NCBI GenBank assembly: GCA_964532505.1 | Contig: CAZHIF010000003.1 | Coordinates: forward strand, 21,237-85,236 | Reading direction: 5' to 3' | DNA from: an uncultured Candidatus Peribacteria bacterium | GTDB taxonomy: Bacteria; Patescibacteriota; Gracilibacteria; CAIRYL01 | DNA: 64,000 bases | Shown here: positions 6,866 to 43,752 of the stretch, one piece after another | How positions within the stretch are numbered: the first letter of the stretch is position 1 | Layout of the letters: every line of letters begins with the position of its first letter | Notes under the pieces: generated by a model | Databases searched by the model: none | The model's input: only the letters and a program-made list of their open reading frames with translations | Told to the model about the DNA's origin: nothing | Position numbers and translations under genes: made by a program

Positions 6866-7708
6866 TTAAAACGGCAAATCCCCAGGCTTGATATTTGATT
6901 CATATTGAATGCTTGGGATTTCTGGGAGGTTGTCTGCTGCCATGGAAGAACTTGCAGCTGCAATCACTACTGTTGACCCCACGGGGGCGCTCATTTCCAC
7001 TGGGCTTTCAGATCCGAGCAATGCGCACTTTTCCACAATTACTTCGGTGGTATATTTTTTTTCTCCTTCTGGCGTATCCCAACTTCTGGTTTGCACTCGT
7101 CCGCTGATGTAAACCTTCCGTCCTTTTTTTATCATAGTTTCTCCCTCGCTTGCCAGTGCACCCCACAATACCAAGTTGTGATATTCAGTTTCTTCTTTTA
7201 GCTCATCACTGGCCTTGTCTTTCCATTTTCGGTTTGATGCCACAGAAGTGGTTCCCACCGTGCTTCCATTTGGTGTTTGACGCACTTCTAGATCTTTGGT
7301 CAGGTTTCCAATGATTTCCACATTATTCATTCCAGTTGCAAAAATATTACTTTGCACGGCAGGGTATCCTCCGTTTTGTGGAGTGAGAAGAAGCATGTCT
7401 TCCGCGATTACTTTTGTTTTATATTTTTTCTTTCCCGGCTCTGGTTCCCAGTGTTCTGTTTTGAGGCGTCCTTCCACATAAATTTGAGATCCTGCTTGAG
7501 TATATTGCGCAATGTTTTCTGCTTGTTTCCCCCAAAAAGTAATACTGTGGAAAGAGGTGCTGTCAAATGACCCACCTCCCATTTCTTTTTCCACTTTTGA
7601 AATAACTCGTAAATTCACGTCGCACACACTCATTCCGCTAGGCAAATTTCGCAGTTCTACGGTTTCAGTTACATATCCAATAAGTTTTACTCTGTTAAGT
7701 GCGTACAT
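6866..7708 (-). CDS. ssb: single-stranded DNA-binding protein with two tandem OB folds
   Basis: There are two SSB-type OB domains: NRVKLIGYVTETVELRNLPSG...FWGKQAEN...YVEGRLKTEHWE, and NNVEIIGNLTKDLEVRQTPNG...LWGALASE...YISGRVQTRSWD. The acidic/hydrophobic C-terminal tip is ...PGDLPF. Confidence 0.9.
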   Translation of the reverse strand: MYALNRVKLIGYVTETVELRNLPSGMSVCDVNLRVISKVEKEMGGGSFDSTSFHSITFWGKQAENIAQYTQAGSQIYVEGRLKTEHWEPEPGKKKYKTKVIAEDMLLLTPQNGGYPAVQSNIFATGMNNVEIIGNLTKDLEVRQTPNGSTVGTTSVASNRKWKDKASDELKEETEYHNLVLWGALASEGETMIKKGRKVYISGRVQTRSWDTPEGEKKYTTEVIVEKCALLGSESPVEMSAPVGSTVVIAAASSSMAADNLPEIPSIQYESNIKPGDLPF

Positions 7709-11579: not shown

Positions 11580-11585
11580 GATGCT

Positions 11586-19844: not shown

Positions 19845-21437
19845 TTAGTACTTCTCTAATGCATCGATTAAGTCCAAAAGTGAATTTTTCTGCGTTTCCC
19901 AATTTTTATAAGAATTACTCTTTTTAAAATTCAAAGACTGATTACTTTCTTGCCCGAACAACGGATTAAAAACTTTTTCCAAATCCCAATTTTTAATTTC
20001 ATTTCGTAATATTTCAATGTCTGCCACTGGTATAAAATTTTTCGCTTTAATTGTAGATTGAAATTTTTTTACCTTCTTTTCCCATATTTTCATAGTCTTG
20101 TCGAGTTCTTCTGCAAGAAGCTTTTCTTTAGGTTTTTCATTATCCTCCGGATTGTCGGGATTTAAAAAATGTGAAGATGTAATATTGCTTGGACCACTAT
20201 GATAAAAATGTGGGTTTAATGCATTCTGGCCATGTTCTGGAGGAGTGCCTTTTCCTCTTTGTTTTTCAATAAACTGTCTTTCTAAAAAATCGTTGTTGAT
20301 AATGCGATATGCCAAAGGAATATATTCTGCAATTTCTTGTTCGTTAGGAATAAACTGCTTTAATGCTAAAAATTTTTTTGCGTTTTTTTGCAGTTGTAGA
20401 ATATTTTGCTGGGTGGCCTTTAAATGATCAGAATTGATTAATTTTAAATTTTTTCTAAATTTTTTAAATGATTGCTTCGCTATTCTTTCTGCATCTTCTG
20501 CAATCACTTCTAATATTTTTTGTTTATCTTTAGAAGAAACAGAAGATGATTTTTTTAAAAGATTCAATAGCATTTTTTCCTGCTGTTTTTTTGATTTTTT
20601 CTTTTTCTCTTTATCATTTGTTTTATTGGGGTCAAACTCATCAAAATATGTCAACCAATAGGCAGGATTTGCAGGTTCTTTCTTATGCGCCTCTTCTATT
20701 TGTCGAAAACTTTTTCCTTGACTATGCGCAACTGCTACATCGACTAGAGTATTAGAATTTTCTGGAGACGAAGAATGGGGAGCTCCCGAAGATGAAACTT
20801 CATTCACAGAATTTTCACCATTTGCATTTATTTTTTCATTTCGCCTGACTCCATCTTGCGCAGCATTAAGATTACTTTTCCTTTTTCTGAATTTTTGGAT
20901 TACATTTTCTATTCTTATTTTTTCACCATCCTCAGCCCTTTTTCCCAAACTGGTAAGATTTGAAATAATCGTGGCACACAGGTTTGTATCATTGCAATTT
21001 TCCACAGAAAGGTCTTCTAGTGCTGGAATAACTGAATCGACTAATTTTTGCTTCCAAGCAGCTGCCAATGTTTTTTTTGTTGACTCATCAAAATAATATT
21101 CATTCTCACCAAAAAGATCATTTGCCAGGGTTGCAAAGGTAGCAAGAGATTTAAAAACGGAATAAAAAGAAGAATTATCCATGGAAAAATCTTCGATCTC
21201 GGATTTTCTTTTCTCTGCAGAATTTTCTTGCAACTCTTCAACACCTGCTTGATCGGACGTATTAAGGGGAGTGGGAGTTTTATGATCGGCATTATGAGTA
21301 TTTTCTCTAAAGTTCAAAAACTCAAGAAGCCTAGTAGCATATGTTCTGGATTGCGAAACAATGCTCAAAATTGCAGGCTTAATATTGAGACGCGTATTGC
21401 TCGGTTGGATCGCCTCTGGTGTGTTATGCTTTTTCAT
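19845..21437 (-). CDS. hypothetical Lys/Glu/Asn-rich protein (530 aa), last gene of the ORFan operon
   Basis: A long ORF starting 15 nt after the upstream gene. No TM segment and no recognisable motif. Contains a KKKKSKKQQEK basic tract. Confidence 0.75.
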   Translation of the reverse strand: MKKHNTPEAIQPSNTRLNIKPAILSIVSQSRTYATRLLEFLNFRENTHNADHKTPTPLNTSDQAGVEELQENSAEKRKSEIEDFSMDNSSFYSVFKSLATFATLANDLFGENEYYFDESTKKTLAAAWKQKLVDSVIPALEDLSVENCNDTNLCATIISNLTSLGKRAEDGEKIRIENVIQKFRKRKSNLNAAQDGVRRNEKINANGENSVNEVSSSGAPHSSSPENSNTLVDVAVAHSQGKSFRQIEEAHKKEPANPAYWLTYFDEFDPNKTNDKEKKKKSKKQQEKMLLNLLKKSSSVSSKDKQKILEVIAEDAERIAKQSFKKFRKNLKLINSDHLKATQQNILQLQKNAKKFLALKQFIPNEQEIAEYIPLAYRIINNDFLERQFIEKQRGKGTPPEHGQNALNPHFYHSGPSNITSSHFLNPDNPEDNEKPKEKLLAEELDKTMKIWEKKVKKFQSTIKAKNFIPVADIEILRNEIKNWDLEKVFNPLFGQESNQSLNFKKSNSYKNWETQKNSLLDLIDALEKY

Positions 21438-21452
21438 TATAAAAAAATTATC

Positions 21453-22589
21453 TTATGCCATCACTGCATTTGGCAGTAATGATTTTCTGTTCTGTTTTCT
21501 TCTTTCTTTCATCTCACTTGCCTTTTCAAATAGTGATTTTGCGAGTCTTCCTTCCTTTATTTCTTGTGCAACACTTGTAAATGCTTTGTTGTATTTATCA
21601 GCAATATTTTTTCCCAAAAATAATCGAACGATGGATGAAGTTGGTCGTAAAATAAAAGCAGTTGTTGTATCTATTACATTATCTTTTGTTTCTTTGATAA
21701 TGGAAAAAAGATTTTTTAAAACTCCTTGGCTGTCTTTCACTTGCAAATTCCCATATTCTTTAATTTTTTTGTTTCGAGTAAGAAATCCAAGACCTTGCAT
21801 GGTTTTTCCAAAAGCTCTTCGGCCAAATTGACCCACTCCAGATAGCATAGTGTCGAGCTGAGCTCGAAAGCCATAATAGAGGACGGAGATTGCAGGTCCC
21901 ACAGAAATATCCCATAATACAGGCTTTTCTCCAAAAGGATTATCTTTATCTTTCCACACAGTGGAAACCCCTTTTCCTCCCACATGCTTCACGCCTTCCC
22001 AAGTTTTTTTCAGACCCCAAGAAACTCCTGCTTGTCCGAATTCGTTTCCTTCTTTTCCCCTCCATGTATATTTAAGCCCTTTCCATCCATGGTGCGCTGC
22101 GTCTCGAATAACTGGTGCGGCCAATGCTGCAGCTCCTCCTGCTATCACCATTTCTCCAACCCCTGCACCTGCTAACGCAGCTGTTCCTGCACCCAATGCT
22201 GCAGGAACTCCAATGGTTGAAGTTGCCAATGGCATACTTGCACCAACGGCGGCGCCGACACCTCCACCTAATGCATATCCAGCAGCTGCGTAAGGGACAA
22301 TGCTCCCTACTACACCAATTGCTGCCAATGTTTTTTCCCCAACACCACTTGCTTGTTTAAATTGTTCAACTCTTTTTTGTATTCCTGCTCCTGTGAGAAG
22401 TTTCATTACACTTGATTGATACTTAGCTCTTTGAGGATTTACACCTGACTGAGGTGATTGTGCTGCAGCTACAGATGCAGCGGGAGCAGTGGCAGCCTGA
22501 GGAGAACCTGCAGGAGCAGGTGGTGTTTTGGAAGGCGTGTTAGGAGGTGTATTGTATGCAAGCCGACGCTCAAGAAACATTCCATTCAT
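21453..22589 (-). CDS. hypothetical membrane protein (378 aa) with a Pro/Ala-rich N-terminus and Gly/Ala-rich hydrophobic core
   Basis: NTPPNTPSKTPPAPAGSPQAATAPAAS is followed by about 80 aa of G/A-rich hydrophobic sequence (nt about 22095-22330), then a basic soluble C-terminus. Confidence 0.75.
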   Translation of the reverse strand: MNGMFLERRLAYNTPPNTPSKTPPAPAGSPQAATAPAASVAAAQSPQSGVNPQRAKYQSSVMKLLTGAGIQKRVEQFKQASGVGEKTLAAIGVVGSIVPYAAAGYALGGGVGAAVGASMPLATSTIGVPAALGAGTAALAGAGVGEMVIAGGAAALAAPVIRDAAHHGWKGLKYTWRGKEGNEFGQAGVSWGLKKTWEGVKHVGGKGVSTVWKDKDNPFGEKPVLWDISVGPAISVLYYGFRAQLDTMLSGVGQFGRRAFGKTMQGLGFLTRNKKIKEYGNLQVKDSQGVLKNLFSIIKETKDNVIDTTTAFILRPTSSIVRLFLGKNIADKYNKAFTSVAQEIKEGRLAKSLFEKASEMKERRKQNRKSLLPNAVMA

Positions 22590-22665
22590 AGTGTTTTTTT
22601 AATTTATTATATTTTAAAATTTTTATTTATAAAATGCAATTATTTTTTCTGAATTATGTAGCGGA

Positions 22666-24657
22666 TCAAGACTTACTCCATCCTTTTTTGATCATCTCCC
22701 ATAATATTTCGGATATTCCATGTTCTGTAATCTTCCCCAAAAGGCCAGAACCGCCTGAAGATTCTGAGTTAGAGGTAGAAGATGGAGATTGCGCCGCTTC
22801 TGCTGTTTCAAAATTGTGAGTCCATTGATTATATCCATCAAATTTACGACTAAAGGTAAGAGAAAGAGCATTATTTGTTGTTAATATTTTTACAATTATA
22901 GATTTTAACCCCCCTTTCGCAGTATCCGAGTTAATAGCCTGCAAAAATCTAGACTTGGCACTTTCTTCTAAAGAATTATAAGTCGTTTGCAGGTTTATCT
23001 TTTCTGCAATTTCATTAGTATAAGTTCCATTAAAAATAGCATCATTAAATTCGTTTTCAAATTGCGATATATAAGAATTTGCCGCTTCTGGATTCTTCGA
23101 TTGCAAAGCATTAAAAACACTCAACATTGAATCTGCAGAATTTGTTGTGTTTCCATAATCATTGCGAATACTGGTTGCATTATCATTTAAAAACCTTTCC
23201 CAAGCATCTTTTTTATACAGCTTCTTTTTTTCATCGGTAGAAATATATTTTACAATTTCTCTTCTAAGCATAAGATCATTGGATTCCATAATCTTTTCAA
23301 CCCAAGGTTTGTTTTTAGCCCAAAGGCTTTTTTTTCTATCTGATGCAGAGGTATACGGATCAACCTTAAAATTTGCAGTTCTTCCAATAAGCGCCAACCT
23401 ATCCAAAATCTCGTTAGGAGTCATATGCAATGCTGTTTCATTTTGGAATATCCAGTGGGTTTTTCTTTTTTTCTCCCTTTTATACAAAAACGCATTCCAT
23501 CCGGTTGTCACCCCTGTTTCATTTTCTTGATTCAACAATTCTTTCATAAACTGCATTCTTCCTTTTTTCCCCAAATCAAAATGGCTTCTTTTTTCATCCC
23601 AAGTCATATTTTTAATACGTTTAGTAGACAAAAAAGGCACCTTTTCTGAAAGTGTTGTAAATGCTTTTTGTCCATCAGCCTCATCTTGCGCTAAAATCTT
23701 CTGAAACAGGGTAAAAAATCTTTCAATATCAGGATCATTTTCTAGCCTATGTTTATCAACTTTTTGAGTGTTTTTCAGAAGCCCATGAACCACCGCACCA
23801 GCTCCAACAGCTCCAGCCACTCCCAAAGAAACAACCGGAATGGATGCCATTGCAGCAGTTACCCCTGCTCCCACCATCAATGTTTTTGAAGTATTACTCC
23901 ACAATCGTAAAGACATTAAGTCATTCTTAACATTCGTAATAGTAGACTTAATAGTATTTATTCCTTCTTTTTTCAAAGGATTCACATTGATTCCAGAAAT
24001 GGATAAATGTGATATCATATTTCGAACGGCAATAATCCCTCCTGCTATTGCTGCAGTAGCAGGGGTAAGCGCAAAGAAAGGAAGGCTCAATACTAACAAA
24101 AATTGCAAAATAATAAGAAGTCGATTCCTCCATACAGAATCTTTTCCTTTCAGTAGTTGAGCTACTCCAATTGCACCTCCAGACAACAATAAGCCAATAG
24201 CATTCACATCGCCAGGCAACAAACCAATTGCCGCACCAATTCCCACAATAGTGGATATGATAATAGGGGAAAATACTCCATCTTTTCCAAAACGAGTCAA
24301 AAAATCATCAATAGTAAATCCCCCTTCATATTTTTTTGCCTGATTACTTTCATGAAAAGCATTTATTAAACCAGAACCAATAGCTAATCCTGGAGGTAAG
24401 GCAAGAGCTCCATGAAAATAACCACGAAAAGATTCAATAACACCATTCACTGCATTTTTACCTCCTTCTAACAGAGTCTTTCCCACCTCAGAAAAAGGAA
24501 GTTCATCACTGGGGATCCCCACACCTCCTGTAGTAGCATTATCTATAGGAGTTCCAAAATCAAAAGTAGGATTCAAGATACTACTTTCAACTACTGGATC
24601 TGCCGGTGGACAAGCTATTGTTTGTCCTGTCGCATTTTTACAGTATAATGTTTCCAT
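22666..24657 (-). CDS. hypothetical polytopic membrane protein (663 aa) with a large soluble C-terminal domain
   Basis: The N-terminal half has several Gly/Ala-rich hydrophobic helices (nt about 23780-24275). The C-terminal roughly 350 aa are hydrophilic. No recognisable motif. Confidence 0.8.
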   Translation of the reverse strand: METLYCKNATGQTIACPPADPVVESSILNPTFDFGTPIDNATTGGVGIPSDELPFSEVGKTLLEGGKNAVNGVIESFRGYFHGALALPPGLAIGSGLINAFHESNQAKKYEGGFTIDDFLTRFGKDGVFSPIIISTIVGIGAAIGLLPGDVNAIGLLLSGGAIGVAQLLKGKDSVWRNRLLIILQFLLVLSLPFFALTPATAAIAGGIIAVRNMISHLSISGINVNPLKKEGINTIKSTITNVKNDLMSLRLWSNTSKTLMVGAGVTAAMASIPVVSLGVAGAVGAGAVVHGLLKNTQKVDKHRLENDPDIERFFTLFQKILAQDEADGQKAFTTLSEKVPFLSTKRIKNMTWDEKRSHFDLGKKGRMQFMKELLNQENETGVTTGWNAFLYKREKKRKTHWIFQNETALHMTPNEILDRLALIGRTANFKVDPYTSASDRKKSLWAKNKPWVEKIMESNDLMLRREIVKYISTDEKKKLYKKDAWERFLNDNATSIRNDYGNTTNSADSMLSVFNALQSKNPEAANSYISQFENEFNDAIFNGTYTNEIAEKINLQTTYNSLEESAKSRFLQAINSDTAKGGLKSIIVKILTTNNALSLTFSRKFDGYNQWTHNFETAEAAQSPSSTSNSESSGGSGLLGKITEHGISEILWEMIKKGWSKS

Positions 24658-24675
24658 TTTGGATTTTTATTTATT

Positions 24676-27600
24676 TTAAGGAGATGAAGGAGGAGGTGTA
24701 ATTCCAATGCTATCAATAAAAGCTTTAAAATCCTTTACGTCTACATATATATCATTAAATTCTGTTTGCAAAGTTGAGAGGCTCGCTGATTGTTCTGAGG
24801 TAGCTTCTCTCCAAATAGCAAAAACTTTTTTAGTATTTTCTAACGTTTCATTAAATCTTCTACCTATTTCATCTGCATTCAACAATTGTGCACTTGCTGC
24901 ATTTTTTTCTGCATCGGTAGCCTTAGGGGTAGGTTTTCTTTCTTTAATTGTAGCATATAACTTATTGAGATTTGTTTGAATAATAATCATTTCATTTTTT
25001 TTCTCTTGCAGAGTTGCCAATAAATTTAATGCCATTTCTTTTGCCTTTTCCTTTCCAATTTTTGGCACAAGACTTTTCAAATCACCTTTGGCATCTACTT
25101 CATTCTCCGCCCAAGAGGTATCTGTCTTCATATTTTCCACAAAAGCATTTTCTAATTCTGCAACCGAAATAATAATTCCTGAATCACTCAATTCTTTTGC
25201 CCTATCTTCCAATGGGGATTTTTGAGTGGTTGGATCTTTTTCTTTCAATTTCTTCATAATATTGGGAATGGTTGGAAGTTCTTTAATCATCTTGTCAACA
25301 TACTCTGTTGTTTGCAGAGAAACTAATGGACCAGTGCTGTTAAACTTTCCTTTTTCAATTCCTGCGCCCACCGCTTGCATTCCCAAGAAATTAGCAATTT
25401 CTGTACCCGCAGCTGGAACCGCATTCCACGCATTTCGCAAATATCCAACGGAAGAAACCGCATTGGCAATAGCTCCTCCTTGAATCACTTGCATCACTTC
25501 CGAGCTGGTAATATTTCCCCATTGCACAGGCTTATCATCTGCGGTAGGGCTGAATGTTCCTTCTATTATCCCTGCCTGTGCCTTGCTGATAATCGAGGTT
25601 CGAATATTTTTAATTTCTGCAAAGAATGCAGTTTCATCTGGAACAATTGCATTGATAAATGCATCCCATTGACTAGGTGACATATTTCCTCGAATCCCGT
25701 ATGCTTGGATAATAGCGCTTTGAATTTCTTGATTGCTGATATAATCTTTCAAGGCAACTTTGAAAGCATCTTGGGTATTGCCGTTAGGAGAAATGGGCGT
25801 TGCGTTTGCATTTAAAGCATAATTTGCAAGCGGATCAACAGCGCTTGTTTTTAGCCAATTGAGCACTCCCATAATAGCATCTGGACTGGCTTTCAGCGCA
25901 TCATTAGTAATTTCAAGACCTTTTCCAGTAAGCATAAATGGTAGCTTGATAATCCAAGGAGCATTATCATATTTTTCCACAATAAATTTCGTTGCTTCAT
26001 TGGTCCCATCCCAAAACACCAATTCATCACCAGCTCCTTCCCACACCTTGTATCCCATTTTTTGCACAAAAGCGAGCATGTCTTTTCCTTCTTTTGAAAG
26101 GTCAATGCCAAAATTCTGTTCAAATTCATCAAATTTTCGAGCCATAAATCCACTTGTTACCCCCCACAACTCTGACAAATCGGCAATCATTTGAGATTTT
26201 CCTTCTTTTACCATTTTTTCCTGTTTTGCAGTTACCTCCGATGCAAAAATAATATCCATATTGAATTTCCCACTATTTTGCAAAAGTCGAGCTTCTGCTG
26301 TATTTCCAAGATAGGTATCTCGAATATATCCAAATCCATTTTCGGGACTTGCTACATCGTTTGGATGTTCTTTGTTATTGGCACTTACGTGCATAAAAAA
26401 GTTTTCTAAATATTGATACATCGCCTTTGCTTTATAGCTTTCGGAATTTTCTCCTGCTGGTGCTTTAATAAATCCTAATGCTTTTTTTGCAATTTCATTT
26501 TCACAAATAATATTAAAAGGATGGAGTTTATATTTTTCTTTTTCAGAAAGAGTGCTTTGAGAAACATTCTCATACCATTGTAATGCAACACTTGGATCAA
26601 TTCCTTTCAAAGCCATTCCTGCAAACAGCCTATCTCTTTTGTCAATTTCATATTTCCCCCATCGCTTATCCATTCCCTCTGCTCTTTCCATAAACATTCC
26701 CACGGGATCTGTGGTTGAAATTTCTTCTCCCAACGCATACCGCTCTGCATCATCCCACATATTACTCCCTTTTATATTTTCATAGAGATCGGAAGATGCC
26801 ACTCCAACAAGCGTCGCAATTCCCGCCCCCATGGCAATTTTTCTTCCTTTTTTCGTCATCAATAAAAGCACTGCCAAAGCCACCATCACTCCTGTACCTT
26901 GCATTTCTCCATTGGTGGCATAGTCTTTCAATTCTCCAAAAAATGTTGAAAGATTTCCTTGCGCATTTGCTTCTTTTCCAAATTTATCAAGCACATCTTC
27001 AGGGCTAGCACTTCCTGTTGCTCCTGTTGTATTTTGCCTTTCTTTGATATATCCTCGAATTTGTTGTATAAATGATGGAAGTTGATTTTGGGGAATTTGA
27101 GAAAGCCTTTGAGATCCCACTGCAAATAAAAGAAACTGCTGAATCACAGGATTTGAGGGGTTCCATTGTTCAGCCAACAAAATCTTTCTTTCGTCTTGGC
27201 TTGCTGTGGTAAAAAATTCAAGATATTTGGCATATATAAACCCTGCTTTCACCCCATACTGTTTTTCAAACATGGATTCTTGAGAAATTTCTCCTTTTTG
27301 GTCTAAATTCACTTCTCGATAGCTTCGCAATGCATTATAAAAATTATCCCTTTCGGAAGCATTGAGAGCATGCGCCCAATAGAGATTTGCATCTATTGTA
27401 AATTTTTTAATAAGGAATTCTTTTTTCTGTGGATTTTGCTCGTTTATAATGGCGCCAATATCTCCATAAAACTTAGCAGTAAATGGCATGTTATGGTTTG
27501 AATCTGCTTCATAGACGGCAATATTTTGCAAAAGACGATGTAGTGAAGCGGCAGGAACTCCTCCTGCTTCAGATGCGTAAATTAAGAATGATTTAGTAGA

Positions 27601-29226
27601 AGCATCAGGTGGAGCTGCAAGATTAGAAAAAATAACCTTCTCTAGTTCCGTGTGTACATGCGCCATTTCCTTGAGCGCAAGATTGGTATTCAGATTTCCT
27701 TTATCGTCAATCAATTCAGAATGGAGTATAACTCCAGTATCCACCTCAGACCGTCCCGCATGTTGTTTTTTTAAGATGCGTAATTGATCTTTGAAATATG
27801 CAATTTTTTGTGCAGCCAACTCCCTATCTTGTTTTGTTTGCTCTGCTATTTCTGGGTTATTGGAAATCTTTGTTGAAATTTTTTCGAGCTGCTCAATATA
27901 TTTCTCTACTTGTTGCATCATGACCACCTCATTTGTCAAATGATTTCCATTTTTATCAATCTGAAATCCATTGATAGTGTGTCCAACGAAAGAAACAAGT
28001 TTTTGGAATACTTCTGGCTGATAACTAATAGAAAGCATTCCAAATCGTTCTGCTAAGGTGTTGGTATCAGAAAAATGCAATCCATGAGTCTCTGCAATAT
28101 CGTTTCGTATTGCAGTTGCCTTGCCATATTCTTCATTACTAGATATAGGATTTGACACTGTTTCTCCTGCCAATTGCAGTGCGCTATTCATCTGAAATTG
28201 TTTTTGCTTTTCCTTCAACAATGAACGATAAATCGCCTCCATTCGATTCAAAAAGTCATTAGCACTTTCTGATAAATGAGGCTCATTCCCAGGATTTGGA
28301 TTGGTGAGTGTTTGCTGTGATTGTTTCCACTTTGTAATTTTTTTATCCACTTCATTTCTTATATTCGAAATTTTTCTCAATCCTTCCCAAATTTTATTAT
28401 CCGTAAAGGGGCTATCATTAGCCCTTATGGCATTTAAATCATTTATAAAAGTCTGCAGCTCATATTCTCTTTCTTGCCTCCATTTCTCATCAGAAGTATT
28501 TCTATCGCTATGTAAATCTATCGGAATAATCCACAGTATATGATTTGCAAAACTTCTAGCGCCATAATCCCACACCTTTTGCGCCTCAATGGCATTGGCA
28601 GCTCGTTGATTTTGCAAAAATTCCAATTCACTTTTATAAGTCTCTGCATCTCTCTTAAAATCAGCTTTTAACACTTCTGCATCTTTTGGAGAATGAGTCC
28701 TCAATTCATTCATCCCAGAAACCAATACTTGATCTCCTCTCACATATAACTTCTTAAATCCTTCATCAAAATCTGCCTCGCTGAGCTGTTGCCCTGTATA
28801 AAAAGACTGAGAAGCATTTTGCTGTGATTGAGAATGTCGCACCTTCCATCCCTCAACTGCCACCATTCCAACCCAAGAAAGATAGCCTTTGCGCTGTTCA
28901 TCCGAAAGGCTATTGGCATATCCCATGAGTTTTTCTGAAAAATCTTTTTCCAAAAAAACATCAAAAGATCCGTGCCAAGTGTTTGCAGGTGTAGGATTAT
29001 ATTCGCGGCGCAGATTCGCATTTTGCGCTTGAATTCTTTCTTGATATCTTGACAACCCAATTCTAGCCCGCTCCTGTTGTTGTTGATAATATATCGCTTG
29101 CTGAGCTTCTTCCTCTGGAGATCGATACAACCTTCCTCTTTCTGGAGACGCAGAAAGAGGCGATGGCTGATTCTCCCACGCCCTCCGTGCTTCATAAAAC
29201 CAATGCTGTTGTGATGGTAATATCAT
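24676..29226 (-). CDS. giant hypothetical protein (1516 aa) with a central paired hydrophobic hairpin, first gene of the ORFan operon
   Basis: An uninterrupted 4.55-kb ORF with no signal peptide. The only hydrophobic region is GVMVALAVLLLMTKKGRKIAMGAGIATLVGVA at nt about 26795-26910. No P-loop or catalytic motif seen. Confidence 0.85.
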   Translation of the reverse strand: MILPSQQHWFYEARRAWENQPSPLSASPERGRLYRSPEEEAQQAIYYQQQQERARIGLSRYQERIQAQNANLRREYNPTPANTWHGSFDVFLEKDFSEKLMGYANSLSDEQRKGYLSWVGMVAVEGWKVRHSQSQQNASQSFYTGQQLSEADFDEGFKKLYVRGDQVLVSGMNELRTHSPKDAEVLKADFKRDAETYKSELEFLQNQRAANAIEAQKVWDYGARSFANHILWIIPIDLHSDRNTSDEKWRQEREYELQTFINDLNAIRANDSPFTDNKIWEGLRKISNIRNEVDKKITKWKQSQQTLTNPNPGNEPHLSESANDFLNRMEAIYRSLLKEKQKQFQMNSALQLAGETVSNPISSNEEYGKATAIRNDIAETHGLHFSDTNTLAERFGMLSISYQPEVFQKLVSFVGHTINGFQIDKNGNHLTNEVVMMQQVEKYIEQLEKISTKISNNPEIAEQTKQDRELAAQKIAYFKDQLRILKKQHAGRSEVDTGVILHSELIDDKGNLNTNLALKEMAHVHTELEKVIFSNLAAPPDASTKSFLIYASEAGGVPAASLHRLLQNIAVYEADSNHNMPFTAKFYGDIGAIINEQNPQKKEFLIKKFTIDANLYWAHALNASERDNFYNALRSYREVNLDQKGEISQESMFEKQYGVKAGFIYAKYLEFFTTASQDERKILLAEQWNPSNPVIQQFLLFAVGSQRLSQIPQNQLPSFIQQIRGYIKERQNTTGATGSASPEDVLDKFGKEANAQGNLSTFFGELKDYATNGEMQGTGVMVALAVLLLMTKKGRKIAMGAGIATLVGVASSDLYENIKGSNMWDDAERYALGEEISTTDPVGMFMERAEGMDKRWGKYEIDKRDRLFAGMALKGIDPSVALQWYENVSQSTLSEKEKYKLHPFNIICENEIAKKALGFIKAPAGENSESYKAKAMYQYLENFFMHVSANNKEHPNDVASPENGFGYIRDTYLGNTAEARLLQNSGKFNMDIIFASEVTAKQEKMVKEGKSQMIADLSELWGVTSGFMARKFDEFEQNFGIDLSKEGKDMLAFVQKMGYKVWEGAGDELVFWDGTNEATKFIVEKYDNAPWIIKLPFMLTGKGLEITNDALKASPDAIMGVLNWLKTSAVDPLANYALNANATPISPNGNTQDAFKVALKDYISNQEIQSAIIQAYGIRGNMSPSQWDAFINAIVPDETAFFAEIKNIRTSIISKAQAGIIEGTFSPTADDKPVQWGNITSSEVMQVIQGGAIANAVSSVGYLRNAWNAVPAAGTEIANFLGMQAVGAGIEKGKFNSTGPLVSLQTTEYVDKMIKELPTIPNIMKKLKEKDPTTQKSPLEDRAKELSDSGIIISVAELENAFVENMKTDTSWAENEVDAKGDLKSLVPKIGKEKAKEMALNLLATLQEKKNEMIIIQTNLNKLYATIKERKPTPKATDAEKNAASAQLLNADEIGRRFNETLENTKKVFAIWREATSEQSASLSTLQTEFNDIYVDVKDFKAFIDSIGITPPPSSP

Positions 29227-29294
29227 TTTCTATTGTTTTATTTTTTTTTAAAGAAAAAAAATTTCAGACCATTATAGCATGCTTTTCTTATCTA

Positions 29295-29323
29295 TTGCAA
29301 TATTTCTTTATTTTTGATAACAT
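29295..29323 (+). promoter_or_regulatory. candidate sigma70-type promoter for the small exported-protein/pilin-like cassette
   Basis: TTGCAA (29295-29300), a 17-nt spacer, then TAACAT (29318-29323), about 30 nt upstream of the ATG at 29354. It lies inside the 127-bp AT-rich divergent intergenic region. Confidence 0.3.
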
Positions 29324-29353
29324 AAACAGAAAAATAATTTTTTTTAAATATAT

Positions 29354-29857
29354 ATGAATATCAAACTTCATGACTTTCGAATATTAGGATTCATTTTGGC
29401 ATTTGGAAGTGTCCTTGGGCTTTCGCTTTTCGCCTTTCCGTCGTTTCAAAAAGCAGATTTTTCCGATGCCTCATCGCACACAAGCTTTATTTCTAGTGCC
29501 GAAACAATTCGAAAAAAAGTAGTCCCATTTTCCTCAGAAAATTCTATCACTCTCACACTTCCAGCAACGCCCAAAGAAATCTCAATCCTTCCTAAAGGAA
29601 TCATTTTTAATACTTCTTCTGAAGAAATTTTGAGAATGGAGAATTTTCCAGCCTTTGGGCTGGAAGTACTTTCAACCATGGAAAACACTCGAGCCGCAGC
29701 AAAAGAAGCTATAAAAGGTGTTATTTTAGAGCAAAATTCTAGCGGAGAAGTGTCTGGGCGTATTTTGTTTGAGAAAGCACCTCCTTGGTATACTGAATAT
29801 GTGATGCATTGGAATAATAAAAAAACTATCCCCCTCGAAATCGTCCCAGCTAAATAG
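29354..29857 (+). CDS. small exported or signal-anchored hypothetical protein (167 aa)
   Basis: N-terminal hydrophobic segment ILGFILAFGSVLGLSLFAF, then a hydrophilic domain. It is the first gene of the cassette divergent from the ORFan operon. Confidence 0.6.
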   Translation: MNIKLHDFRILGFILAFGSVLGLSLFAFPSFQKADFSDASSHTSFISSAETIRKKVVPFSSENSITLTLPATPKEISILPKGIIFNTSSEEILRMENFPAFGLEVLSTMENTRAAAKEAIKGVILEQNSSGEVSGRILFEKAPPWYTEYVMHWNNKKTIPLEIVPAK

Positions 29858-29866
29858 TAGAAGTAT

Positions 29867-30262
29867 ATGCGCTTTCTTTTTTCTTTTCTATTGGCATTCG
29901 GATTAGGATTCGGAGCATTCGCCGAAAACACCCAAAATTCGGCAACCGCACCTGTCGACGTGATCTACCATGAAAGCATTCATCAAGTCGATGTAAATGA
30001 TTTTGGGAACCTTTCACCCATCACCAGTGTGGGTGAGGTGATGCAAAAACTCTTGAATATCATGATGACGCTTTTGGGAAGCCTTGCTCTTTTGGGAATG
30101 ATTGTGGGTGGAGTGATGATGATGGGAGAAGGAATCAACGACGGACAAGCCAAAAAAGGAAAACAAATCGTACTCTATTCTGCCATTGGAGTTGTCGTTG
30201 CTATTTCGTCTTTGATCATCGTTACCCTCGCACAAACCATATTTTATTATTTTGGAACATGA
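29867..30262 (+). CDS. VirB2/TrbC-like (T4SS pilin-like) small membrane protein
   Basis: Signal peptide MRFLFSFLLAFGLGFGAFA, then two TM helices (LLNIMMTLLGSLALLGMIVGGVMMM and IVLYSAIGVVVAISSLIIVTLA). They are separated by a short charged loop, GEGINDGQAKKGKQ. Confidence 0.6.
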   Translation: MRFLFSFLLAFGLGFGAFAENTQNSATAPVDVIYHESIHQVDVNDFGNLSPITSVGEVMQKLLNIMMTLLGSLALLGMIVGGVMMMGEGINDGQAKKGKQIVLYSAIGVVVAISSLIIVTLAQTIFYYFGT

Positions 30263-30729
30263 CAAGATTTTTCTCGCTTTTGTTGATACTTATTTTCTTG
30301 GGAGTAAATCTTTTGGTCAGCACCTCTTCTTTGGCAGATTGCACAACAAATCCAAATGGAGCAGGATGTTCTGCCACGGTAAATAATGGACTCAATCAAA
30401 CCAATGGAACTATTATTCTCCGAGAACCTCTTTTGCCAGGGAAAAACATAATTGATGTTTCGGCAAGCCAAGGAACGTTGGGCATTGTTTCGCAATATAT
30501 CAAAATGGTGTATCAATATATGCTAGCAGCAGGGAGCCTGATTGGCATTATTTCTTTAATGTTTGCAGGAGTGCAAATGATGGTGTCGGCAGGTGATTCG
30601 AAAGCCATGGGGGAAGCGAAAAAAATCATCACTACCACCTTTCAAGCTCTAGCAATTTTATATCTTTCCGGACTCATCTTGTATGTAATCAACCCAACGT
30701 TTTTTACCTTTGGAGGAGGAAGTAGCTAA
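30259..30729 (+). CDS. VirB2/TrbC-like (T4SS pilin-like) small membrane protein, paralog
   Basis: ATGA start/stop overlap with the previous gene. Signal peptide ...LLVSTSSLA, then two TM helices (LAAGSLIGIISLMFAGVQMMV and TFQALAILYLSGLILYVI) flanking the loop SAGDSKAMGEAKK. Confidence 0.6.
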   Translation: MTRFFSLLLILIFLGVNLLVSTSSLADCTTNPNGAGCSATVNNGLNQTNGTIILREPLLPGKNIIDVSASQGTLGIVSQYIKMVYQYMLAAGSLIGIISLMFAGVQMMVSAGDSKAMGEAKKIITTTFQALAILYLSGLILYVINPTFFTFGGGSS

Positions 30730-31985
30730 TCGCTCACACCTTGTGCCACTTCCGAAGGCGGAATGGCCGCATCCGCTCCTTTGATTGTCCAAACCCCTCT
30801 GGCCTGATAGGGAGAAAAGAATTTATCAGTATAGAGTTCCTTCTTCTGCTCCAGCACATCTCGATAGAAATATGCATCAAACCCCACCACTTCATGCGAC
30901 ACTACTTGTGTTTGCCCTGGCGCGAGGTCTTCTGAAATAGTGGTTTTGGGAGCTGGCGGATTTCTATAGTTTTTAATAATCGGTCCAAAAATATACACAT
31001 CTCTATCAGGCGCTGTTCCATAATAATGAAAAAACAATTCTTGATTTCCACGCCCCCCTCTTCTGGTTTGCATCAAAAGCGCATTTCCTGTTGTATTTTT
31101 AAATTTAAAATCTTTAGATCCTACATAAATGGTAGCATCACTTCCTGGTGGATCGTAATACCTTACCGAATAAGAATGATTAAACCTCTCCACTATTTCC
31201 ACACCTGCTAGCATAGCCCCTCTGTAGGCGGTGGAAGAAACCTGACATAACCCTCCACCATAGTCTGGAACTACTTTTTGCCCCAAAATAACAAGTTCTT
31301 TCACATACCCAGCTGCTGCGTTCACCGCCCCAAGCCTATCAGTAAACGAAAACACTGCATCTTTAGGGATAATATATCCATTAAATTTATTCGCCCCTGT
31401 CATCACATTATGCACACGGCCTCCCGACGACCCAGAAAAATCTGATCGCCCTACAGCCACCAACTCTTTAATTCCCATCTGCTTCAATTCTTCATCATCC
31501 ACGGTAACCGTTGGAGCAATGATATCCACTTCCAAATTCACAAACCCAATATTTTCCTGAATAGCAGCAGCAATCAGTTTTGCAGAATTAGCAATTTGCA
31601 AAGTTACCCCATTCTGAGCATATCCTTCAAATTGGATATTCTTTTTCTTATCTCGAAAAATCCGCACATCTTTTTTTTCTTGATTAATCTGCGGAGCAAT
31701 AACTTTTGAAAGATATGCTTCAATGGCAGGCAAATCTACACTACTTGAAGAAATGGCCTGAGGAGAAACGTCTTGTGGGGCGTCTTCGGCAATGCAAAAA
31801 GGATCATTTGCTATCGATTTGACGATAGTCGTGCTTTTTAAAAACTTTTCAGGATTGGAAAGAATAAAATGCTGATATTCATACTTTAAGCGAATTTCTT
31901 TTGGTACTTCAGCAAAAACAGGGGCTGATGCCACTATTCCAAAAATTGAAAAAAACAAGAAAAAAGAAAGACGGAATGTTTGCAC
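30726..31985 (-). CDS. VanW family protein (exported)
   Basis: Signal peptide MQTFRLSFFLFFSIFGIVASAPVFA. VanW core: GYVKELVILGQKVVPDYGGGLCQVSSTAYRGAMLAGVEIVERFNHSYSVRYY. Confidence 0.85.
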   Translation of the reverse strand: MQTFRLSFFLFFSIFGIVASAPVFAEVPKEIRLKYEYQHFILSNPEKFLKSTTIVKSIANDPFCIAEDAPQDVSPQAISSSSVDLPAIEAYLSKVIAPQINQEKKDVRIFRDKKKNIQFEGYAQNGVTLQIANSAKLIAAAIQENIGFVNLEVDIIAPTVTVDDEELKQMGIKELVAVGRSDFSGSSGGRVHNVMTGANKFNGYIIPKDAVFSFTDRLGAVNAAAGYVKELVILGQKVVPDYGGGLCQVSSTAYRGAMLAGVEIVERFNHSYSVRYYDPPGSDATIYVGSKDFKFKNTTGNALLMQTRRGGRGNQELFFHYYGTAPDRDVYIFGPIIKNYRNPPAPKTTISEDLAPGQTQVVSHEVVGFDAYFYRDVLEQKKELYTDKFFSPYQARGVWTIKGADAAIPPSEVAQGVSD

Positions 31986-33482: not shown

Positions 33483-34385
33483 TTATATTTTTAGCATCAA
33501 AGTTCCATTCTGCTCAAACTCATCTTTGTTGATTGCATACATCACCGGAGCAAAATTTTCAAAAACCTGAACAGAATTGATTTCTTTTCCTTGTTTTTTT
33601 TCTGTTTGCCAAATCTGATTATATCGAAACCAATTTTCGTTGTGCTCTACAAAACAATGCTCTTTTTCTTCCACATGCCATTTGCTGGGCAAGTGTTGTG
33701 GAGATAAAATTCTTCCCTTGAGATATTTTTCTTCCACCCAAATGTTGAGCTGCAATGGGACCGAAAGTGTATTTTTGATCTGCAAATCTAAGAAATTATA
33801 TATCACCGTAGCACCACTCCCAAAAGGAATCACTCGTCCAGAATCTGGAAACACGTCAAGCGAATGATGATAGCGCTCCACGATTTCAACGGGTAAGTGT
33901 AAAAACATCCAGCAGAGCAGATTTGCCATTTGGCAAAGTCCTCCGCCCGCACCTTCCACCACTTTCCCTCCAGAAAGCAACATTCCATCCACAAATCCAT
34001 TAGAATAGGTGGGCGGACCAACTGATTCCCAAAAAGAAAAAATTTCTCCAGGATGAATAACGAGTCGATTGAGTTTTTCCGCTGCCTTTTGGAGATTGAT
34101 CACCTTTTGCTCTTGCAGCCGAGGATTAGAATCTCCCAAACGCCGACGCAAAACCGATTGATGGCGAACCAAAATGCTCGAAAACATTTCCTGTTGTTTT
34201 CTTTTGGAAATTGGTTTTTGTAGGTTTTTGAGGCTACGCCAGTGTTTTTTAATCGCCAAGATTGGTTTTTTCAAAAACGGATATTTTTTGGAAAGAGCTG
34301 TTCTTTTGGGAGAAAGGTGATGATGGAGAAGGTGGGTGATGCGAAATTTAAGGTCGAAAGAAGGCATAAAAAAACTGAATAACAA
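33483..34385 (-). CDS. VanW family protein (second copy, no obvious signal peptide)
   Basis: VanW core: GKVVEGAGGGLCQMANLLCWMFLHLPVEIVERYHHSLDVFPDSG. Confidence 0.8.
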   Translation of the reverse strand: MLFSFFMPSFDLKFRITHLLHHHLSPKRTALSKKYPFLKKPILAIKKHWRSLKNLQKPISKRKQQEMFSSILVRHQSVLRRRLGDSNPRLQEQKVINLQKAAEKLNRLVIHPGEIFSFWESVGPPTYSNGFVDGMLLSGGKVVEGAGGGLCQMANLLCWMFLHLPVEIVERYHHSLDVFPDSGRVIPFGSGATVIYNFLDLQIKNTLSVPLQLNIWVEEKYLKGRILSPQHLPSKWHVEEKEHCFVEHNENWFRYNQIWQTEKKQGKEINSVQVFENFAPVMYAINKDEFEQNGTLMLKI

Positions 34386-40183: not shown

Positions 40184-40424
40184 GCATTGGCTCTGATTTT
40201 TTCAGGTCAGAGTTTTACGGTCTTTTACATCATTGGAAAGAATTTTATGAGAAAAGAAAGAGAAGAAAAATCTTTCAATGAACGACATTAAATTATAACT
40301 ATTTCTTTTTGTTAACCACATAAGAAATTGCAATTTTTGTAAGTAATAAAAGGTTTTTCTCGAGCAAAATTCATCTCTTTTTGTTAAAAAAGAAAGAGGT
40401 GTTTGTCAAATGGAAAGAGCATTT

Positions 40425-43412
<2,988 letters not shown>

Positions 43413-43582
43413 TATTTGCTCTTTCGATGACTTCAAAGTGATCTCAAGTGCTTTTTGCTATTATAGTAAAAACTTGAGTAAAAGGTCCTTGAGACCCTTT
43501 GAGGGTTTGACAAACAGCCTCTTTGTTTTTACTCATAGGTTTCTTTCCTCTGATACTGACCGTTTTGTAAAAAAAAGGTCGT

Positions 43583-43701
43583 GTCTTGGTGGTTATAGAG
43601 GAGGGGGTACACCTGATCCCATTCCGAACTCAGCAGTTAAGTCCTCCATCGCCCATGGTACTTGGACCATAGGTCCTGGGAGAGTAGGTCGCCGCCAAGA
43701 C
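43583..43701 (+). rRNA. rrf: 5S ribosomal RNA
   Basis: GTCTTGGTGG...CCCATTCCGAACTCAGCAGTTAAG...GAGAGTAGGTCGCCGCCAAGAC. Helix I closes perfectly, and the sequence is collinear with bacterial 5S. Confidence 0.95.
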
Positions 43702-43722
43702 ACGGTCTTTTTTTATGTCTCA

Positions 43723-43752
43723 ATCTGATAGCATTCTTATCAGATTTTTTTT
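43723..43752 (+). terminator. rho-independent terminator of the rRNA operon
   Basis: ATCTGATA (43723-43730) / TATCAGAT (43738-43745) is a perfect 8-bp stem with a 7-nt loop, followed by eight T. Confidence 0.7.

Follow-up and report, generated by a model that had tools for sequence, protein, structure and literature searches.

The three-gene plus-strand operon p167-pilA-pilB (29354-30729), located in a 64 kb stretch of DNA (hereafter, the window), encodes two VirB2-like pilins of the PF18895 family that, judging from their sequences, are ancient paralogs and not recent duplicates. Our preferred reading, with a probability of about 0.6, is that PilA and PilB are two non-redundant pilin subunits assembled by a VirB4-driven type IV secretion system (T4SS) whose genes lie at another site in the genome. 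The locus is genuine but unremarkable, adding two more members to an already catalogued family. Divergent pilin arrays were reported previously in Patescibacteria (PMC12102498, PMC10633639). In a survey by Quinonero-Coronel et al. 2025, VirB2-like pilins occur near virB4 in 1135 of 1948 assemblies and away from it in ~40 %, and 441 arrays of 2-11 divergent pilins were found (PMC12102498). An earlier note on this DNA had implied that pilins lying apart from T4SS genes are a rarity. Such rarity is not supported: the separation is the published norm for the class Gracilibacteria, to which the window belongs: T4SS components are dispersed in this class and VirB6 is undetectable (PMC12102498).

Features of the p167-pilA-pilB locus (window coordinates)
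Feature	Position	Strand	Basis
Divergent intergenic region	29227..29353	.	AT-rich; 15.7 % GC vs 38.6 % in the window
p167, 167-aa protein	29354..29857	+	N-terminal membrane anchor; invariant PPWYTEY motif
pilA, VirB2-like pilin (131 aa, stop TGA), rank-1 subfamily of array	29867..30262	+	PF18895 match, orthologs, AlphaFold2 hairpin
pilA predicted signal peptide, residues 1-19	29867..29923	+	hydropathy; AlphaFold2 helix 3-18
pilA helical hairpin, residues 55-129, loop GEGINDGQAKKGK	30029..30253	+	family alignment, AlphaFold2
ATGA start/stop overlap of pilA and pilB	30259..30262	+	read directly from sequence
pilB, divergent VirB2-like pilin (156 aa, stop TAA), rank-2 subfamily of array	30259..30729	+	profile-level homology, AlphaFold2 hairpin
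pilB predicted signal peptide, residues 1-26	30259..30336	+	hydropathy; AlphaFold2 helix 2-25

The coordinates of the two pilin ORFs and their ATGA overlap, both described in the earlier note, are confirmed by direct reading of the sequence. The overlap implies that translation of pilB may be coupled to that of pilA, and the commonest junctions in related pilin arrays are likewise overlaps (-1, -4 and -8 bp). A third conserved gene, which that note did not include, is part of the operon: p167 ends 9 bp before the start of pilA, and its product has a transmembrane segment at residues 7-31 by hydropathy. Orthologs of p167 lie directly upstream of pilA in the related loci L003 (34 % identity, E 1e-22) and L005 (37 %, E 9e-29), so that the closest relatives, too, have this conserved gene as the partner in front of pilA. 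Searches of Pfam, NCBIfam and PDB sequences gave no match to p167. The intergenic region in front of the operon separates it from a minus-strand ORF of 1516 aa and is likely its promoter region; a scan of this region for sigma-70-like consensus sequences gave only minus-strand matches, not above the expectation from shuffled sequences.

The GC content of the operon is native (0.40 vs 0.386 +/- 0.034), and profile searches of the window ORFs place it among housekeeping genes; it is thus a chromosomal gene set rather than a mobile element. We found no integrase, relaxase or repeats around pilA and pilB in the window. Large ORFs without annotation, of membrane or surface type, flank the operon, and the window, whose gene content is CPR-like and which has a 23S-5S pair without an upstream 16S, contains only two pilin-like ORFs. 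Under genetic code 25, in which UGA is read as Gly (the code of BD1-5 Gracilibacteria), pilA would have no stop codon. We rejected this code because coding density under table 11 is 90-97 % in the window and nearly all related loci, with code 25 doing no better, because TGA terminates seven window genes, and because the pilA orthologs all end in ...FGT.

PilA scores above the cutoff for PF18895 (T4SS_pilin; 34.2 bits, gathering score 26.6, E 2.6e-8) and below that for TrbC/VirB2, PF04956 (19.9 bits, gathering score 27.9, E 8.8e-4). An exhaustive phmmer search with pilA found homologs in 1462 cluster representatives at E<=1e-3, many of which fuse 2-8 hairpins in one polypeptide. Word-indexed searches with single proteins yielded one relative each for pilA and pilB; the family is too divergent for this kind of search, so exhaustive phmmer and profile searches were needed. 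A scan of a genome collection with the pilA alignment and two metagenome scans with the pilA and close-pilB alignments gave no matches.

PilB is recognised at the level of profiles. Alone, it scores 17.3 bits against PF18895, under the gathering score of 26.6, and it has no match to PF04956, to which one ortholog matches at E 0.025. Four of six pilB orthologs match PF18895, the best at 2e-7, and a comparison of the pilB-family and pilA-family profiles with hhalign gave a probability of 98 % (E 3e-13, 104 columns). A profile search found 376 homologous clusters for pilB, nearly all with PF18895, and their source names are "pilin" or "Type IV secretion system pilin". Given the PF18895 match of pilA, its 1462 homologous representatives and the presence of the ordered pair in dozens of independent loci, the pilin pair is not a chance resemblance.

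Both proteins share one topology, a signal peptide and a hydrophobic hairpin. Kyte-Doolittle hydropathy gives hydrophobic segments at residues 1-19, 61-90 and 99-129 of PilA, and at residues 1-28, 84-112 and 123-151 of PilB. In the AlphaFold2 models, an N-terminal helix and a disordered stretch precede a helical hairpin (H55-89/H92-129 with pLDDT 84-92 in PilA; H73-109/H114-144 with pLDDT 87-93 in PilB). The loop between the helices holds the basic residues, in agreement with the positive-inside rule. PilA and PilB start with ordinary Sec signal peptides (MRFLFSFLLAF... and MTRFFSLLLIL..., respectively), and the -3/-1 rule predicts signal peptidase I sites at AFA|EN in PilA and SLA|DC in PilB. 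The pilA family alignment shows no variation at G82, G98, K99 and G108. PilA lacks Cys, while PilB has a pair (C28, C37) in its exposed N-terminal region and an invariant LYxINPxF motif at its C-terminus. The possibility that PilB is a lipoprotein was rejected: L-A-D-C has Asp at -1, the orthologs have Y-A-E-C, and neither agrees with the lipobox [LVI][ASTVI][GAS]C. N_methyl PF07963, which represents the class III G|F/M-xxxE motif of T4P pilins and pseudopilins, does not match either protein.

These results bear out the assignment of both proteins to VirB2/TrbC-like pilins in the earlier note, with PF18895 rather than PF04956 as the profile that pilA matches above its cutoff. The topology it described, a signal peptide followed by two hydrophobic helices around a short Lys/Gly/Asp loop, is likewise recovered, with the loop rich in Lys, and the loops that it quoted occur where it had placed them. 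It also took mature PilB to begin with Cys; given the predicted SLA|DC site, the mature protein probably begins with Asp-Cys, but the N-terminal regions of the two proteins do diverge as it stated. Finally, it left a choice between distinct subunits and variants. With ~16 % identity in the profile alignment and separate sets of orthologs in the same order, pilA and pilB fit the former and not the latter.

In structural comparison, helical hairpins carry little signal to discriminate by. With Foldseek, neither model matches any PDB entry at E<=0.001. The top match of PilA is 8dfu (E 1.1, TM 0.54 on the target, 81 columns), which ranks 34th for PilB (E 4.2), whose top matches include ATP-synthase subunit c. 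A search of PDB sequences with the pilA family profile gave chance matches only.

Comparison of neighbourhoods and copy number, which the earlier note had proposed, shows that the ordered pair is common to related genomes. We mapped 49 loci: the window and 48 related loci from MAGs of Peregrinibacteria, Peribacteria and "Gracilibacteria". In most of the related loci, a pilB-type gene comes after a pilA-type gene; this order is kept in L003, L005, L006 and L007 as well as in most of 44 genome loci. The pilA orthologs in these four named loci are 42-60 % identical to the window protein. Nearly all mapped loci contain arrays of 2-5 pilin genes with tight or overlapping junctions, and the pair usually comes first in a set of 4-5 pilins that keep a fixed order and are orthologous position by position. 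Among 14 five-gene arrays there are 182 cross-genome comparisons for each rank, and in 147-182 of these the best match of a gene had the rank of that gene; the array members are therefore old, distinct orthologous subfamilies. Of these, pilA and pilB appear to be the most consistently retained.

The search for T4SS machinery covered the 64 kb window, within a contig of 98.7 kb, and ~8 kb beyond its right end; an extension to the left yielded a contig of only 1.8 kb. Pfam and NCBIfam profiles for VirB4, VirD4, VirB6/TrbL, relaxase and T2SSE/PilT matched none of the window ORFs of at least 100 aa. The earlier statement that no T4SS genes are in view thus stands for everything that profile searches can detect in the window, and a complete T4SS immediately outside it, which would have made this an ordinary T4SS locus, is absent from the ~8 kb to the right (L054). 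We also considered whether a VirB6 or VirB4 is hidden among the large ORFs of 530, 378, 663 and 1516 aa. Even at E<=10, Pfam and NCBIfam gave no match to any of them. Nor do they have a plausible Walker A motif: the sole pattern match, GRRAFGKT in the 378-aa ORF, is not accompanied by a match to an ATPase family. Jackhmmer searches with the large window neighbours revealed no link to the neighbours of related arrays. The 663-aa polytopic ORF (22666-24657), which has no family match, could possibly be a very divergent VirB6.

The related loci are similar in this respect. All 49 mapped loci lack a VirB4 within 10 kb of the array, and the connection with a T4SS is therefore drawn from homology and from the Saccharibacteria. 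Three loci have a T4CP/VirD4-like ATPase, either directly upstream of the array (L046, L050) or 6 kb upstream (L013). In L010, a ~800-aa protein with six TM segments lies directly upstream of pilA and weakly matches the MMCAP2_0566 family (E 1.1e-4); clustered homologs occupy the same position in L009 and L011. An hhalign comparison of this family with the 663-aa window ORF gave a probability of 0.6 %.

In the reading that we prefer, pilA and pilB would be the first two members of an ordered 4-5-gene array ancestral to the class of Peregrinibacteria, Peribacteria and Gracilibacteria. In the window lineage, only these two would be left at this chromosomal site, co-transcribed with the anchored p167. 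Sec would insert each pre-protein and signal peptidase I would cut it, giving a hairpin in the membrane whose two ends face outwards while its Lys-rich loop faces the cytoplasm. A VirB4-driven T4SS, probably of a monoderm MPF-FATA-like type with its genes elsewhere in the genome, would then extract the subunits from the membrane pool and assemble them. The product may be a pilus- or tube-like surface structure for contact with host cells, in which the divergent N-terminal regions of PilA and PilB would be the exposed parts.

An unlikely alternative is that the two proteins are membrane-resident hairpins that never polymerise outside the cell, and instead contribute to a membrane channel or platform or support the large surface proteins encoded nearby as a scaffold. 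"Pilin" would then be a family label only. No filament or pilus built of the PF18895 family has been reported from any organism in the literature, and a pilus made of the VirB2-like proteins of Patescibacteria is described as a possibility only (PMC12857230). The fold is a generic helical hairpin, with ATP-synthase subunit c among the top structural matches, the fusions of 2-8 hairpins are hard to square with a simple pilus helix of individual subunits, and the operon has large unannotated ORFs of membrane or surface type on its flanks. However, homology to TrbC/VirB2 is detectable (E 8.8e-4), the best structural match of PilA, albeit weak, is an archaeal conjugative pilin, and the genes in Saccharibacteria are embedded in a T4SS cluster (PMC10633639). 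Moreover, the signal peptide, hairpin and basic loop agree with the known state of conjugative pilins before assembly.

It is quite improbable, in our estimation, that the VirB2-like proteins of this class serve a T4P apparatus and its PilT motor, perhaps as an accessory component, instead of a VirB4 T4SS. This idea arises from gene order. In 26 of the 49 mapped loci, none of which has VirB4 within 10 kb, a PilT/PilU-family ATPase (TIGR01420, 441-452 bits vs a cutoff of 319) is encoded directly upstream of the array, with operon-tight gaps of -47 to +32 bp in 25 of the 26. A T4P motor, and not a T4SS ATPase, is thus what adjoins the array within its operon in most related genomes, which weighs against our preferred reading. 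Past MetRS, the array is followed by PilX_N, three N_methyl pseudopilins, PilC and PilO. Yet all loci belong to one class, and FtsQ, Dus, MetRS and TilS, which are housekeeping neighbours, are equally syntenic with the arrays, so that pilT may adjoin them through inheritance of gene order and not for a functional reason. In the window and in its closest relatives (L003, L005, L006, L009-L011), pilA-pilB is kept without nearby pilT or T4P genes, the class III prepilin motif is absent from both proteins, and the family members in Saccharibacteria sit among T4SS genes (PMC10633639). A fixed-order heteromeric set of 4-5 subunits, co-transcribed with PilT beside T4P genes and with pilA-pilB as the minimal core kept in the window, might work within T4P-type machinery or be powered by it instead of by a VirB4 T4SS. 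We regard this as a long shot; if true, it would be a hybrid of two otherwise unrelated filament systems. The adjacency itself is an unreported lead, and a literature search for a link between pilT and VirB2-like proteins in Peregrinibacteria returned nothing relevant.

Two further readings, that a conjugative element is decaying and has left this pair as its remnant or that the pair arose by recent tandem duplication for antigenic variation, are highly implausible and were rejected. They could draw on the weak match of pilA to a pilin-like family of Mycoplasma ICEs (NF045849, Mbov_0395/MMCAP2_0565; E 2.4e-4, far below cutoff) and on speculation in the survey about host-range or antigenic versatility of pilin arrays (PMC12102498). 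However, both ORFs are intact with conserved motifs, the orthologs are 40-60 % identical across genomes in differing chromosomal contexts, and we saw neither frameshifts in relatives nor near-identical paralogs within a lineage. The low identity between pilA and pilB, the rank-specific orthology across arrays, and the native GC and housekeeping context without integrase, relaxase or repeats are also inconsistent with these readings.

Old orthologous subfamilies in a fixed order favour distinct structural roles, as major and minor subunits or in a heteropolymer, over variation in antigens or host range, which the literature has suggested. The pilT-array operon of related genomes also bears on how these essential, mechanistically obscure proteins are energised in host-dependent ultra-small bacteria.

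Among known systems, the array of Southlakia epibionticum ML1 (SEML1_0006-0019; Wang et al. 2023, PMC10633639) is comparable in being chromosomal, of the same phylum and of the PF18895 family. It is a series of predicted pilins within a T4SS cluster and essential for epibiotic growth (PMC10633639). As in that array and the 441 catalogued ones, the window genes are tandem, tightly packed, divergent paralogs (~25 % identity reported; ~16 % here) without a relaxase. By contrast, the window has only two pilins, no virB4, virB6 or prgI within at least 30 kb, a lineage-specific p167 upstream, and a host in the Peregrinibacteria/Peribacteria/Gracilibacteria class and not in Saccharimonadia.

VirB2 of the Agrobacterium Ti plasmid, TrbC of RP4 and TraA of F (PF04956) resemble PilA and PilB in their small size, signal peptide, two hydrophobic helices and basic loop, and their profile likeness to PilA is weak but detectable below the Pfam cutoff. 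Unlike these pilins, PilA and PilB continue from the signal peptide into a long, variable and partly disordered N-terminal extension, lack adjacent VirB3-VirB11 genes, have a host envelope that is monoderm-like, and show no sign of cyclisation, acetylation or a TraF-like peptidase.

The pilin-like protein of Mycoplasma ICEs is also a hairpin protein of similar length in a monoderm host. The scores of the matches to the 0565 and 0566 families are both far below cutoff (20.7 vs 40; 21.6 vs 90), and the window has neither an ICE context nor a 0566-like gene, but the 0565-0566 adjacency is mirrored in L010, where the 0566-like protein is upstream of pilA. Lastly, the pilin of the conjugation-like pilus of Aeropyrum pernix (8dfu) has no sequence similarity to the window proteins, and its structural match is not significant for PilA and ranks low for PilB. 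It is nevertheless a hairpin pilin of a single-membrane organism and the best Foldseek match of PilA.

Both proteins of the pair, pilA (131 aa) and pilB (156 aa), are assigned by profile evidence to the VirB2-like pilin family of Patescibacteria, based on the Pfam score of pilA and on profile and ortholog matches of pilB. pilA scores 34.2 bits (E 2.6e-8) against PF18895 (T4SS_pilin; gathering score 26.6), and an exhaustive phmmer search with it returned 1462 cluster representatives at E<=1e-3. Its match to TrbC/VirB2 (PF04956, 19.9 bits) is under the threshold of 27.9, and its match to the NCBIfam model NF045849, a pilin-like protein of a Mycoplasma integrative conjugative element (ICE), is weak (E 2.4e-4) and under the cutoff. 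Membership of pilA or pilB in TrbC/VirB2 proper is not demonstrated. On its own, pilB reaches just 17.3 bits against PF18895, and BLASTP gives no significant similarity between pilA and pilB. Profiles of pilB orthologs and pilA homologs match at 98 % probability (E 3e-13, 104 columns, 16 % identity), 4 of 6 pilB orthologs match PF18895, and a pilB profile search yielded 376 clusters, nearly all already annotated as PF18895. Clusters of pilB homologs are labelled "pilin" by NCBI and "Type IV secretion system pilin" by JGI.

Many pilA homologs carry several pilin hairpins in tandem on one polypeptide, from 2 to 8 of them (P0013, with 606 aa and 7 stretches; P0020, with 820 aa and 8 stretches; P0016, P0022 and others). 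A two-domain member of ~220 aa occurs in two contigs of relatives, L003 and L006.

By Kyte-Doolittle analysis, each protein opens with a hydrophobic signal segment, and two more hydrophobic segments follow it. AlphaFold2 models of pilA and pilB, built from alignments of 21 and 36 homologs, both have an N-terminal helix, a low-confidence stretch of 35-50 residues and a confident helix-turn-helix hairpin (H55-89/H92-129 in pilA, H73-109/H114-144 in pilB; pLDDT ~84-93). The earlier note's description of VirB2-like pilins with a signal peptide and a short-looped two-helix hairpin is thus borne out, both in topology and in family. The loops, GEGINDGQAKKGK and SAGDSKAMGEAKK, contain the sole cluster of basic residues in each protein, so the positive-inside rule would place the loop in the cytoplasm and both ends outside. 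Conjugative pilins have this arrangement before assembly.

The -3/-1 rule suggests signal peptide cleavage between AFA and EN in pilA and between SLA and DC in pilB. Mature pilB would therefore start with Asp-Cys; the Cys that the note puts first would be its second residue. pilB was rejected as a lipoprotein, as LADC is no lipobox. In the family alignment, the exposed N-terminal region of pilB-type proteins has conserved cysteines. Longer Peregrinibacteria members have four nearly invariant Cys columns, two of which (C28 and C37) are retained in the window. This conservation suggests disulfide-stabilised surface loops in the extracytoplasmic domain of the pilB subfamily. Foldseek-type comparison with PDB structures was not discriminating: the top match of pilA was the Aeropyrum pernix conjugation pilus 8dfu, at only E 1.1, and that of pilB was ATP-synthase subunit c. 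A sequence-profile search of the PDB found nothing.

Features of the window and of related loci (L-numbers denote loci of relatives)
Feature	Position	Strand	Remarks
p167, ORF upstream of pilA	29354-29857	+	167 aa; 9 bp gap to pilA start
pilA	29867-30262	+	131 aa; ORF listing and raw sequence
pilB	30259-30729	+	156 aa; ORF listing and raw sequence
VanW-domain paralogs	30726-31985 and 33483-34385	-	419 and 300 aa; flank S6-S18-L31 and tRNA-Lys block
Four consecutive ORFs	19845-29226	-	530, 378, 663 and 1516 aa; divergent from pilin operon
Cohesin-domain protein, then 1757-aa ORF	10152-16859	+	475 and 1757 aa
Tandem SSB	6866-7708	-	280 aa; two SSB/OB stretches in one polypeptide
23S-5S rRNA pair	40424-43700		no 16S upstream
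PilT/PilU-family gene, examples	L048:268-1308; L013:7041-8084		pilin at 1314 in L048; loci range L013-L052
T4CP/VirD4-like ATPase	L046:6814-8805; L050:6732-8780; L013:1261-3510		664-750 aa; DUF87 and TrwB_AAD_bind, Walker A
Six-TM protein	L010:6010-8424; L011:7125-9515; L009:402-2936		~800 aa; closest genome relatives

The raw sequence confirms the ATGA overlap reported earlier, four bases (30259-30262) common to the end of pilA and the start of pilB. Upstream of p167 is an intergenic region of 127 bp with 15.7 % GC, on whose far side the 1516-aa ORF is divergent. At the other end, the 419-aa VanW gene is convergent with pilB and overlaps its end by 4 bp. The p167-pilA-pilB operon has a GC content of 0.40 (window mean 0.386 +/- 0.034). 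UGA encodes Gly in some Gracilibacteria, and this reading would abolish the pilA stop. We compared tables 11 and 25 in the window and related loci. Code 25 is ruled out for the window, which uses the standard code, because coding density with table 11 is already 90-97 % (window and nearly all related loci), 7 window genes terminate with TGA and all pilA orthologs share the C-terminus ...FGT.

In the contigs with the nearest pilA homologs (L003, L005, L006 and L007), a pilA ortholog (42-60 % identity) is directly followed by a pilB ortholog (40-59 %), and L003 and L005 have a p167 ortholog (34-37 %) just upstream. Scanning species-representative genomes with the pilB alignment gave 44 loci, from Peregrinibacteria, Peribacteria, "Gracilibacteria" MAGs and a few bins otherwise labelled. 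Four loci (L022, L029, L032 and L046) come from MAGs labelled Nitrospirota/Nitrospirae or Oceanicoccus; they show typical Peregrinibacteria synteny (FtsQ...PilT-pilin array-MetRS-T4P, the last denoting type IV pilus genes) and are probably mis-binned or mislabelled contigs. HMM mapping gave the same order in nearly all 44 loci: pilA-type (rank 1), pilB-type (rank 2), then 2-3 more pilins. Arrays have four genes in 21 loci, five in 15, three in 6 and two in 6. Most junctions between array genes range from -8 to +20 bp, and 1-, 4- and 8-bp overlaps are frequent, so the ATGA overlap is typical. For 14 complete five-gene arrays among L015-L052, we determined the best BLAST match of each pilin in another genome. 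This match had the same rank in most of the 182 comparisons made per rank: 175 for rank 1, 182 for rank 2, 181 for rank 3, 179 for rank 4 and 147 for rank 5. The array thus consists of distinct orthologous subfamilies in fixed order and not of recently amplified copies, and pilA-pilB is an ancient pair. Rank orthology favors separate roles for the subunits over antigenic variation and, of the note's two options, distinct subunits or variants, supports the first. The window has ranks 1 and 2 only, with no further pilin-like ORF in its 64 kb. Rank-3 and rank-4 types follow directly in L006, and lie 4 kb off on the other strand in L003.

The window is ordinary CPR-type chromosomal DNA encoding Der, TopA, tandem SSB, PheS, a class I W/Y-type tRNA synthetase, HflX, S6/S18/L31, tRNA-Lys, two VanW proteins, RsmB, S1, MetAP, RsmG, an amidase/SpoIID protein, SerA, a DHH/DHHA1 (RecJ-like) protein and PriA. 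Its rRNA operon is unlinked, as S1 ends at 39732 and no 16S precedes the 23S gene. ORFs at 42940-43278 and 43345-43728 were discarded as spurious, since they are inside or overlap rRNA genes. The cohesin-domain protein (PF00963, E 3e-8) has a signal peptide and a C-terminal TM anchor; the 1757-aa ORF next to it has no family match beyond a weak coiled-coil-type match to TrbJ (E 0.004, far under cutoff).

We scanned every non-shadow window ORF of at least 100 aa with Pfam, and unannotated ones also with NCBIfam. As the earlier note had stated, no genes of a type IV secretion system (T4SS) are in view: none of these ORFs matched VirB4/CagE/AAA_10, VirD4/TraG, TrbL/VirB6, relaxase or T2SSE. A Logan contig extending ~8 kb past the right window end encodes only GatB, SerRS, PdxS, Fur, TrmD and ComM. 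The four ORFs at 19845-29226 have no Pfam or NCBIfam match and no homologs in related loci, and we found nothing linking them to T4SS proteins or to neighbours of related arrays. The 378-aa protein is Gly/Ala-rich and the 663-aa protein is polytopic, with several TM segments at ~residues 126-294; an extremely divergent VirB6 may be present in this cluster. Quinonero-Coronel et al. 2025 scanned 3,035 Patescibacteria genomes with PF18895, PF04956 and other profiles, and found VirB2-like pilins in 1,948 VirB4-containing assemblies, near virB4 in only 1,135, and 441 arrays of 2-11 pilins with ~25 % mean identity (PMC12102498). In class Gracilibacteria, TrsD and VirB3 mostly lacked virB4 association and VirB6 was undetectable (PMC12102498). 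Given this dispersal, pilins without adjacent T4SS genes are the expected situation in the class.

We favor a T4SS-pilin mechanism, to which, with distinct pilA and pilB roles included, we give a probability of roughly 0.6. The three genes would be transcribed from the AT-rich divergent region, with pilB translationally coupled to pilA. Both pre-pilins would be inserted via Sec and then cleaved, and the membrane hairpins would form a reserve of subunits; a T4SS encoded elsewhere would draw on it and assemble them into a surface structure. pilA and pilB would occupy different structural roles, as rank orthology across arrays supports. In Southlakia epibionticum, Tn-seq showed that epibiotic growth requires the T4SS cluster, to which several consecutive predicted pilin genes belong (Wang et al. 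2023, PMC10633639). The same study notes that Gram-positive T4SSs normally have no pilus, and a 2025 review treats a pilus as a possibility, not an observation (PMC12857230). Tandem-hairpin fusions fit poorly with a simple pilus built of one subunit. Membrane-resident, non-filament roles are an unlikely explanation.

Cooperation with T4P/PilT machinery is less probable still. In 26 of 49 mapped loci, the array is immediately preceded by a gene for a PilT/PilU-family ATPase (441-452 bits against TIGR01420, cutoff 319; only about 50 bits against VirB11 models), and in 25 of these the gap measures -47 to +32 bp. Beyond a convergent MetRS gene downstream are PilX_N, three N_methyl pseudopilins, PilC and PilO. 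All mapped loci belong to one class and housekeeping neighbours are equally syntenic, so the adjacency may be inherited gene order; we found no paper mentioning pilT upstream of a VirB2-like array. In L046 and L050, PilT is replaced by a T4CP/VirD4-like ATPase, which in L013 is 6 kb upstream of the array. This is the sole T4SS-type ATPase near any mapped array; AAA_10 and TraG-D_C matches are confined to the L050 copy, and VirB4 is absent within 10 kb of every mapped array. An ICE remnant or recent variation cassette is very improbable; the window has no integrase, relaxase or repeat structure.

The six-TM protein is directly upstream of pilA-pilB in L009-L011 and absent from the window. The L010 copy, the one scanned against NCBIfam, resembles the conjugal transfer protein MMCAP2_0566 of a Mycoplasma ICE, though weakly (E 1.1e-4, under cutoff), and the six-TM protein is possibly a very divergent VirB6-type partner. 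In the Mycoplasma ICE, MMCAP2_0565 and MMCAP2_0566 are adjacent genes; pilA weakly matches the former (model NF045849), and the upstream neighbour in L010 the latter.
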